From the sequence record PV683228.1: a DNA stretch of 64,000 nucleotides; one strand, written 5' to 3'. Positions 37,703 to 38,260 of this stretch are shown here, piece after piece (within the stretch, counting starts at the first letter, position 1; each line of letters starts with the position of its first letter). Below the pieces are notes generated by a model, which was given only the letters and a program-made list of their open reading frames with translations, searched no databases and had not been told where the DNA came from. Origin of the DNA: Escherichia phage EcF-vB. A program made the translations under genes and the position numbers.

Positions 37703-38260
37703 TTACTTTCTCAGTGGATGAATAAAGAATGCCAACATAACTCTTTCCCTTGAGAATGCTCTTTCTTCTGGGACAACACTTTTTAGTTTCCATCCAACAT
37801 AAATTCTCCAGTAAAACTGTTTACCAAAGACTTTAATTGATGGGATAAAAGCGAATAATCCCCAAGCATTACTGTTCCACATTAGGAGATAACCAGTCTG
37901 ATTATCTTCAGGGTCAGAACTTACGTTGATATTACCTTTCCACTTAGTAACATCTTTTACATCTCTTCCTAATACATGGTAAGAGAAGTTATAAGCTTTG
38001 TTTCTCCAGAGCCATCCGACTCTCTGCATGTAGACACCCAGCTTACCAATCTTTCTAATCTTAGCCCATCGTTTGACGTGGCCTTCATCACCATCAATCG
38101 GGTTGTCATAGGTCTCCATCCATCTGAATCCAAAAGGTAGATGTCCTTTCTTCTCACTGTAGAATGGAACTACAAAAGGTGCTAAGATGACTGCTAGGGT
38201 TGCTGCAATTGGGTCTAGTAAAGCTAAGAAAATCCATGAAGCATACTTCAAATATCTCAT
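37703..38260 (-). CDS. membrane protein (185 aa) embedded in tRNA array
   Basis: N-terminal hydrophobic helix (IFLALLDPIAATLAVILAPFVVPF); copy at 62672..63229 differs by one residue. Confidence 0.6.
   Translation of the reverse strand: MRYLKYASWIFLALLDPIAATLAVILAPFVVPFYSEKKGHLPFGFRWMETYDNPIDGDEGHVKRWAKIRKIGKLGVYMQRVGWLWRNKAYNFSYHVLGRDVKDVTKWKGNINVSSDPEDNQTGYLLMWNSNAWGLFAFIPSIKVFGKQFYWRIYVGWKLKSVVPEERAFSRERVMLAFFIHPLRK

Follow-up and report, generated by a model that had tools for sequence, protein, structure and literature searches.

The holin T of phage T4 is a class III holin, with one membrane helix, an N-in/C-out orientation and a large periplasmic domain. Lysis cassettes can also encode antiholins or holin partners, for example T4 RI, P1 LydB, P2 LysA and PBSX XhlA. 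For protein-coding genes lying among tRNA genes, the known parallels are the ORFs of the T4 tRNA region and the mitochondrial 'tRNA punctuation' model, in which tRNA processing sets the ends of the mRNA.

The gene studied here belongs to the protein family DUF7338. Its catalogued members include a gene of Felix O1 (28262-28816), CPT_Mushroom87 ('holin') of phage Mushroom, pinkbiff_39, KP27_093 and phiAS5 ORF0116. The Center for Phage Technology, an expert annotation group, independently named the Mushroom orthologue 'holin', and more precisely a class III holin, from its predicted topology. This topology-based label has since been copied into other GenBank records and papers. In the original Felix O1 paper, the gene was absent from the holin candidates and its product was undetected in virions. 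A literature search on the name 'DUF7338' found no papers.

We analyzed a stretch of DNA of 64,000 nucleotides, referred to as the window. The region of 6 kb around the ORF matched 348 phage records, and the best matches were Felix O1-like myoviruses (Felixounavirus), with 94-96% identity. The window was ~95% identical to Escherichia phage PHB11, a Felixounavirus genome, and whole-window BLAST showed that positions 1-50127 are collinear, in reverse, with PHB11 53751 to 840. Sequence comparisons identify the ORF as an ordinary and already catalogued gene, the single-copy Felixounavirus member of DUF7338/PHROG 2143, a family widespread among phages. The gene and its surroundings have the following features:

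37703-38260, minus strand: DUF7338 / phrog_2143 membrane protein CDS, 185 aa, ATG start (ORF list, Pfam, PHROG, dN/dS, AlphaFold2); the left-arm, reference-like copy
38268-38273, minus strand: Shine-Dalgarno AAGAGG, 7 nt 5' of the ATG, read from the sequence
38279-38354, minus strand: tRNA-Arg(acg), directly upstream of the DUF7338 CDS (ARAGORN; Rfam tRNA 59.8 bits)
37619-37694, minus strand: tRNA-Gln(ttg), directly downstream of the DUF7338 CDS (ARAGORN; Rfam tRNA 56.6 bits)
36343-41472, minus strand: tRNA array with 26 ARAGORN calls, enclosing the DUF7338 CDS and a second nested CDS (DUF7217)
36518-37252, minus strand: DUF7217 / phrog_2114 gene, 244 aa (265 aa in relatives), between tRNA-Ser(gct) and tRNA-Phe
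44910-46043, plus strand: protein of 377 aa with three Ig-like domains, directly before the endolysin
46043-46561, plus strand: endolysin (Phage_lysozyme), directly after the 377-aa protein

An earlier note on this DNA had described a 185-aa membrane protein gene that interrupts the tRNA array, and both parts of this description were borne out. The ORF has an ATG start and a Shine-Dalgarno sequence, annotated at the same place in the Mushroom orthologue, and its product has a single strong hydrophobic segment (~residues 7-33, peak Kyte-Doolittle 2.2). The CCA 3' end of tRNA-Arg(acg) lies 18 nt before the ATG, and tRNA-Gln(ttg) begins 8 nt after the TAA stop.

An Rfam scan of 35.5-43.5 kb gave tRNAs and sub-threshold noise, and nothing else. 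The tRNA-Tyr and the second tRNA-Met (40892-40979 and 41143-41219, minus strand) were called by ARAGORN and were missed by the Rfam tRNA model (E <= 0.01); the Tyr gene is a pseudo-tRNA in the Felix O1 and Mushroom annotations. The DUF7217 protein showed weak similarity to tape-measure-like regions. An HNH homing endonuclease lies inside the tRNA array of PHB11 (13223-13642, locus L002) and of several relatives, and is absent here (~38796-38799); the tRNA array is a hotspot of mobile insertions. Directly upstream of the array, on the minus strand, is a DUF2828/DUF7788 protein of 471 aa (41638-43053), whose counterparts are labelled DUF2828-family, vWFA or RNA-binding protein in related records. 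It may be the counterpart of gp130 of phage Bas63, a Ro60-like protein that is encoded directly upstream of the Bas63 tRNA genes and reportedly counteracts the defence system Ppl (PMC11482910).

The protein matched Pfam DUF7338 (PF24027) over its full length (residues 1-184), with 209.1 bits against a cutoff of 27, and phrog_2143 with E = 2.4e-81. Pairwise dN/dS against 23 distinct Felixounavirus and Hafnia-phage orthologues ranged from 0.036 to 0.122, with a median of 0.068, and the gene is thus under strong purifying selection. Searched with a profile, 1.84 billion representative proteins yielded a family of 891 clusters (50% identity), whose members are nearly all single-domain proteins of 160-200 aa. 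Homologues were located at 610 places in 603 phage records, so that the gene is essentially single-copy. The window protein is 95-99.5% identical to its Felixounavirus orthologues, which have equal length and lie between the same tRNAs. That the ORF is a chance open frame, for which its location among RNA genes would be the one argument, has a negligible probability given the low dN/dS, the ribosome binding site, the Pfam and PHROG families with their 891 clusters and the confident fold prediction described below.

Beyond DUF7338 and PHROG 2143, the searches gave little. NCBIfam, PADLOC and PDB sequence searches, run with the single sequence and with the profile, returned nothing meaningful. 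The PADLOC profiles for anti-phage defence and counter-defence gave 0 families at E <= 10, and Pfam, PHROG and NCBIfam scans of the protein found none of the nuclease domains of SegB or HNH homing endonucleases. A search of BFVD retrieved family members only, one of them auto-named 'Envelope protein', a name we treated as spurious.

The window contains a second copy of the gene in a large inverted repeat, made up as follows:

36929-50127: left arm, genome-like over most of its length, with quality collapsing beside the junction
50137-51186: single-copy loop of ~1.05 kb, corresponding to PHB11 87334-87553 plus 1-840, with no annotated CDS
51186-64000: right arm, running off the window end
62672-63229, plus strand: second CDS copy in the right arm, with G156Q

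The duplication comprises about 13 kb and both CDS copies are open. From 50137 the window jumps to PHB11 87334 and then proceeds forward through 87553/1, reaching 15515 at the window end. The junction thus connects position 840 of PHB11, in reverse, with position 87334, in forward orientation, and falls in a PHB11 stretch of ~1.7 kb without annotated CDS. We rejected the idea that the fold-back marks a physical end of the genome at coordinate 1 of PHB11; the PHB11 record is simply permuted and the junction is 840/87334. The related phage Pr103Blw has short direct terminal repeats of 581 bp, and the genus packages its DNA this way.

The arms are 99.4-99.8% identical over the outer ~9 kb; near the fold, identity is about 92-95% and gaps number in the dozens. 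An outer segment of 3.9 kb differs between the arms at 27 alignment columns, representing 13 events. The ORF accounts for 2 of these columns (1 event), where 3.9 columns or 1.9 events were expected (Poisson P = 0.26 and 0.44, respectively), and the next 5.2-kb segment has zero substitutions between the arms. The difference in the ORF is an adjacent dinucleotide at 37794-37795, GG in the left arm and CA in the right arm (coding strand). Both nucleotide changes are non-synonymous and turn Gly156, an invariant residue of a GWK motif, into Gln. None of 23 related genomes carries the CA allele. The neighbouring 244-aa ORF and several tRNAs have single-base indels between the arms; most arm-to-arm indels cluster at 63616-63981, within the final ~400 nt of the window, and therefore track position rather than gene. 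Most of them fall in the DUF7217 gene.

The earlier note had counted one substitution between the arms and indels in the neighbouring genes. Both statements are correct, with one residue and two adjacent nucleotides changed. It had taken the near-perfect conservation of the gene between the arms as a sign of selection on the protein. The preservation is no greater than expected from the flanks, and the only change hits an invariant glycine. Selection on the protein itself stands on other grounds, namely the dN/dS of about 0.07 against orthologues and 16 invariant residues in the family; comparing the arms gives no sign of it.

Judging from the sequence, the second arm is most likely an artefact of long-read assembly, a fold-back chimera, and not a biologically maintained duplicate. 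This reading draws on the private alleles of the right arm, the quality collapse at the junction and the single array in relatives. When 23 relatives were aligned, the left arm agreed with them at 23 of the 27 differing columns, and the right-arm allele occurred in none or almost none. Among the private alleles are the ORF change, a cluster of four changes in tRNA-Phe and indels of single bases in both tRNAs and ORFs. Compared with PHB11, the left arm has 75% identity and 38 gap openings beside the junction, and the right arm 89% and 6. The right-arm copy of the DUF2828/DUF7788 gene (around 59100-60149) is frameshifted and split into several ORFs. Every related record inspected has one tRNA array and one copy of the gene. 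We consider it very improbable that the inverted repeat is a real genome structure in which both gene copies are kept by selection. Both copies are open, and two large indels between the arms, for which a simple fold-back of a single molecule gives no account, could reflect biological copies that have diverged from each other. However, the ORF shows no shortage of differences compared with its flanks, the private right-arm alleles reach an invariant Gly, and an extra ~13 kb would exceed the Felixounavirus genome size range of 84-91 kb. In the first of the two indels, 1062 nt of the left arm (40825-41886) are missing from the right arm at 60107/60108, which deprives the right arm of tRNA-Tyr, Asn, Met, Glu, Pro and the greater part of tRNA-Asp. 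The breakpoint of this indel falls within a T-arm motif of a tRNA, between GGGA and CTTGAACCC, suggesting recombination or assembly collapse between tRNA genes. In the second, 718 nt of the right arm (54181-54898) are missing from the left arm at ~47094-47098.

For the window, the result is thus mainly a correction: the gene is already known as a near-identical member of a catalogued family, and the two arms are unfit for inferring selection. The remaining interest is at the family level, in a new-fold, lysis-linked membrane protein with a widely copied, topology-based 'holin' label.

In its confident AlphaFold2 model (pLDDT 93.7), the membrane protein has a single membrane helix at the N-terminus (residues ~2-33) and a compact alpha/beta domain of ~150 residues, which is highly conserved. 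A structure search with the model gave no PDB fold match for the alpha/beta domain, and no similarity of the model to RNA-binding or nucleotidyl-transfer folds. DUF7338 is accordingly a large phage-specific family without a solved structure or detectable similarity to a known fold. A family alignment of 32 sequences, reaching down to 32% identity, had 16 invariant residues. They are polar and aromatic and form the motifs TxDN..G, WxWRN..Y and GWK; T50, D52, G57, W83, W85, R86, N87, Y90, G156, W157 and K158 are all present in the left-arm copy. Such residues suggest a binding or catalytic site rather than a typical holin, a kind of protein that evolves fast. The predicted topology is equivocal: the flanks of the helix (+2 on the N-terminal side, net +1 on the C-terminal side) weakly favour an N-in orientation, but the C-terminal domain is very basic, with a pI of about 10 and a net charge of +12. 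The 185-aa protein has no cysteine and is therefore not a lipoprotein, as it lacks what the signal peptide and lipobox of the Bor, Cor and Llp type require. Profile and structure searches, which the earlier note had proposed as a check, thus gave DUF7338/PHROG 2143 by profile and no known fold by structure. Its statement that the function is unknown needs qualifying, given the two family assignments and the published class III holin label from predicted topology.

The context of distant homologues points to host lysis. In about 7 of ~18 independent distant lineages, a lysis gene lies within 3 kb of DUF7338, with a rough binomial P of 1e-3 at an assumed chance rate of 10%. In L065 and L059, a small ORF comes after DUF7338 and Phage_lysozyme follows within about 350 nt, and a Phage_holin_4_1 gene comes directly after DUF7338 in L072. 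The gene order is DUF7338, a 3-TM holin and a GH108 endolysin in L080; DUF7338, a 96-aa ORF and a GH108 endolysin, with Rz further on, in L088/L089; and holin, lysozyme, i-spanin, o-spanin and DUF7338 in L099-L101. A further case is the T4-like Aeromonas phage phiAS5 (NC_014636.1, L107-L111). Here the distal tail fibre, DUF7338 and lysozyme are adjacent frames followed by asiA on the opposite strand, which is the T4 gene t locus. This locus (84672-86025) holds DUF7338, lysozyme and a 112-aa coiled-coil ORF, and it looks like a displaced lysis cassette. No homologue of T was found in the 225-kb phiAS5 genome by tblastn and with a small T profile.

From this gene context, we give an even chance to a predicted role of the DUF7338 protein in the lysis module, acting at the cytoplasmic membrane during host lysis. 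It would be either a non-canonical single-helix holin, with a topology like that of T4 T and an unrelated sequence and fold, or a holin partner or regulator that sets the timing of lysis. Neither the window nor PHB11 yielded a T homologue, and a Felix-like genome was found to encode no other small TM protein that matches a holin PHROG or family. A two-TM protein of 167-177 aa (phrog_4343), encoded about 2.4 kb past the endolysin in PHB11, is an alternative holin candidate. The narrower claim that the protein is 'the Felixounavirus holin' is about half as probable as a lysis role in general.

Several observations speak against a lysis role. Phage KP27 carries a bona fide T holin in addition to DUF7338, and canonical holins adjoin DUF7338 in L072, L080 and L099; since another holin is present in these four cases, DUF7338 is not 'the' holin there. 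In the window, the endolysin is 7.8 kb away from DUF7338 and on the opposite strand. The conserved polar motifs and the equivocal topology weigh against a lysis role as well, as does the knockout screen of Bas63 described below. The most economical reading is that the protein would be a holin in some phages and a holin partner or regulator in others.

The same gene contexts could also be those of an envelope-acting accessory gene, or 'moron', unrelated to lysis, which would block superinfection or alter the envelope and sit where such genes gather, beside tail-fibre genes, lysis cassettes and tRNA arrays. In L099-L101 the gene stands after Rz/Rz1 and before the terminase, like bor in lambda, and in phiAS5, L088 and others it directly follows tail-fibre genes. 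It coexists with complete lysis gene sets, and its conserved motif resembles a ligand-binding site. Proteins 57-80% identical occur in otherwise unrelated phages in a patchy distribution, which implies horizontal transfer across phage families, and relatives have homing endonucleases within the same tRNA arrays. In the PhageMaP paper on the Felixounavirus Bas63, a genome-wide knockout screen is reported to have found lysis/membrane and tRNA genes mostly dispensable (PMC11482910); the paper does not name the DUF7338 orthologue. Nevertheless, we regard an accessory role of this kind as rather unlikely. The absence of cysteines and of a PADLOC match speaks against it. A homologue is also present in a Bacillus phage, which argues against targets specific to the outer membrane or LPS and for one common to both envelope types, the membrane or peptidoglycan. 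The frame-tight linkage to holin and endolysin genes, together with the replacement of T at the phiAS5 t locus, is more specific than accessory-gene placement. We therefore retain the lysis role as the leading reading.

Nesting among tRNA genes is not peculiar to Felixounavirus. Equally tight nesting was seen in a Hafnia-phage-like contig (L031, with spacers of 27 nt and 8 nt), in Av-05 (L032, 121 kb) and in two lineages of ~170-185 kb T4-like contigs (L043/L050 and L051). In the Pseudomonas Otagovirus phiPsa347, DUF7338 lies between tRNA-Val and tRNA-Trp. Altogether, at least five phage groups have the gene inside a tRNA array or at most ~1.1 kb downstream of tRNA genes: Felixounavirus, Hafnia-phage-like phages, Av-05, several T4-like lineages, some with arrays of 19 and 24 tRNAs, and Otagovirus. 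A universal tRNA linkage was rejected, as most homologues with <=42% identity have no tRNA within 10 kb. The linkage is thus lineage-specific, and probably concerns expression or mobility rather than tRNA biochemistry.

The recurrence of tRNA neighbours could be taken to mean that the basic C-terminal domain is cytoplasmic and binds or modifies tRNA or another RNA at the membrane. Its pI of about 10, its charge and its conserved W/R/N/K/Y motif would suit such a function, and the adjacent Ro60-like gene has been proposed to work with the array RNAs (PMC11482910). We consider this improbable, because about 30 distant loci are without a tRNA within 10 kb and have lysis or tail-fibre contexts instead, the model lacks the expected fold similarity, and the residues flanking the helix speak weakly for a periplasmic C-terminus, in line with the prediction in the published annotation.

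Candidate promoters in this region are the following:

40077-40105, minus strand: best sigma-70-like match in the array, TTGACA-17-TATAGT, 11/12; a weak candidate for the start of a co-transcript
41499-41528 and 41591-41619: further promoter-like matches, upstream of the first tRNA

Promoter-like sites were not commoner in the region than in shuffled sequence, and these assignments are therefore weak. No terminator-like site was found on the coding strand between 40077 and 37703, and close to the DUF7338 gene there is neither a promoter nor a terminator that would serve it alone. The tRNA array shares its direction with the terminase, portal and head genes further downstream. From these observations and the 18-nt and 8-nt spacers to the flanking tRNAs, we infer co-transcription with the tRNA array. 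DUF7338 would then be transcribed as part of the tRNA-array precursor, and processing of the flanking tRNAs by RNase P and 3' end-processing enzymes would release its mRNA.

Lysis-cassette placement, including a t locus without detectable T, and tRNA nesting together lead to a concrete hypothesis. DUF7338 may represent a hitherto unrecognised class of lysis proteins with a new fold, acting as a single-helix holin that has replaced T in some T4-like phages or as a regulatory partner, with a periplasmic domain, of unrelated holins. In several virulent enterobacterial phage families it would be made from a tRNA-array transcript, out of which tRNA processing cuts its mRNA. We propose this full version tentatively and hold it less probable than a lysis role as such. 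If it were true, lysis control would be coupled to tRNA-array expression in these families. If the protein is a holin or holin regulator, DUF7338 would fill the missing lysis-timing component of the Felix O1-like phages, a group with wide use in diagnostics and biocontrol.

Compared with known systems, the window gene shows no difference of substance from the DUF7338/PHROG 2143 orthologues, G156Q being found in the right-arm copy alone. With morons of the lambda bor type the family shares its location between Rz/Rz1 and terminase in L099-L101 and its patchy, horizontally transferred distribution. It differs from them in that its members are not lipoproteins, occur mostly in virulent phages and elsewhere lie upstream of the holin. 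tRNA punctuation is matched in arrangement, as the CDS is flanked at 8-18 nt by tRNAs on the same strand; the difference is that processing in the window is only inferred. Like antiholins and holin partners, the putatively membrane-anchored DUF7338 protein is encoded next to an endolysin and a canonical holin in some phages, where the lysis set is complete without it, but Pfam, PHROG and NCBIfam scans gave no homology to T4 RI, LydB, LysA or XhlA. Homology to T4 T (Phage_holin_T) was rejected, with an hhalign probability of 0.1%, a Pfam scan returning DUF7338 only and no PDB fold match. DUF7338 further differs from T in its strongly conserved polar motifs, and both coexist in KP27. The likeness to T4 is one of setting and architecture. 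Felix-like phages carry rIIA/rIIB and embedded spanins, as T4 does; in phiAS5, where T is undetectable in the genome, DUF7338 occupies the syntenic t locus beside lysozyme; and the predicted architecture of the protein, like that of T, combines a single membrane helix, after a short N-terminus, with a ~150-aa globular domain.
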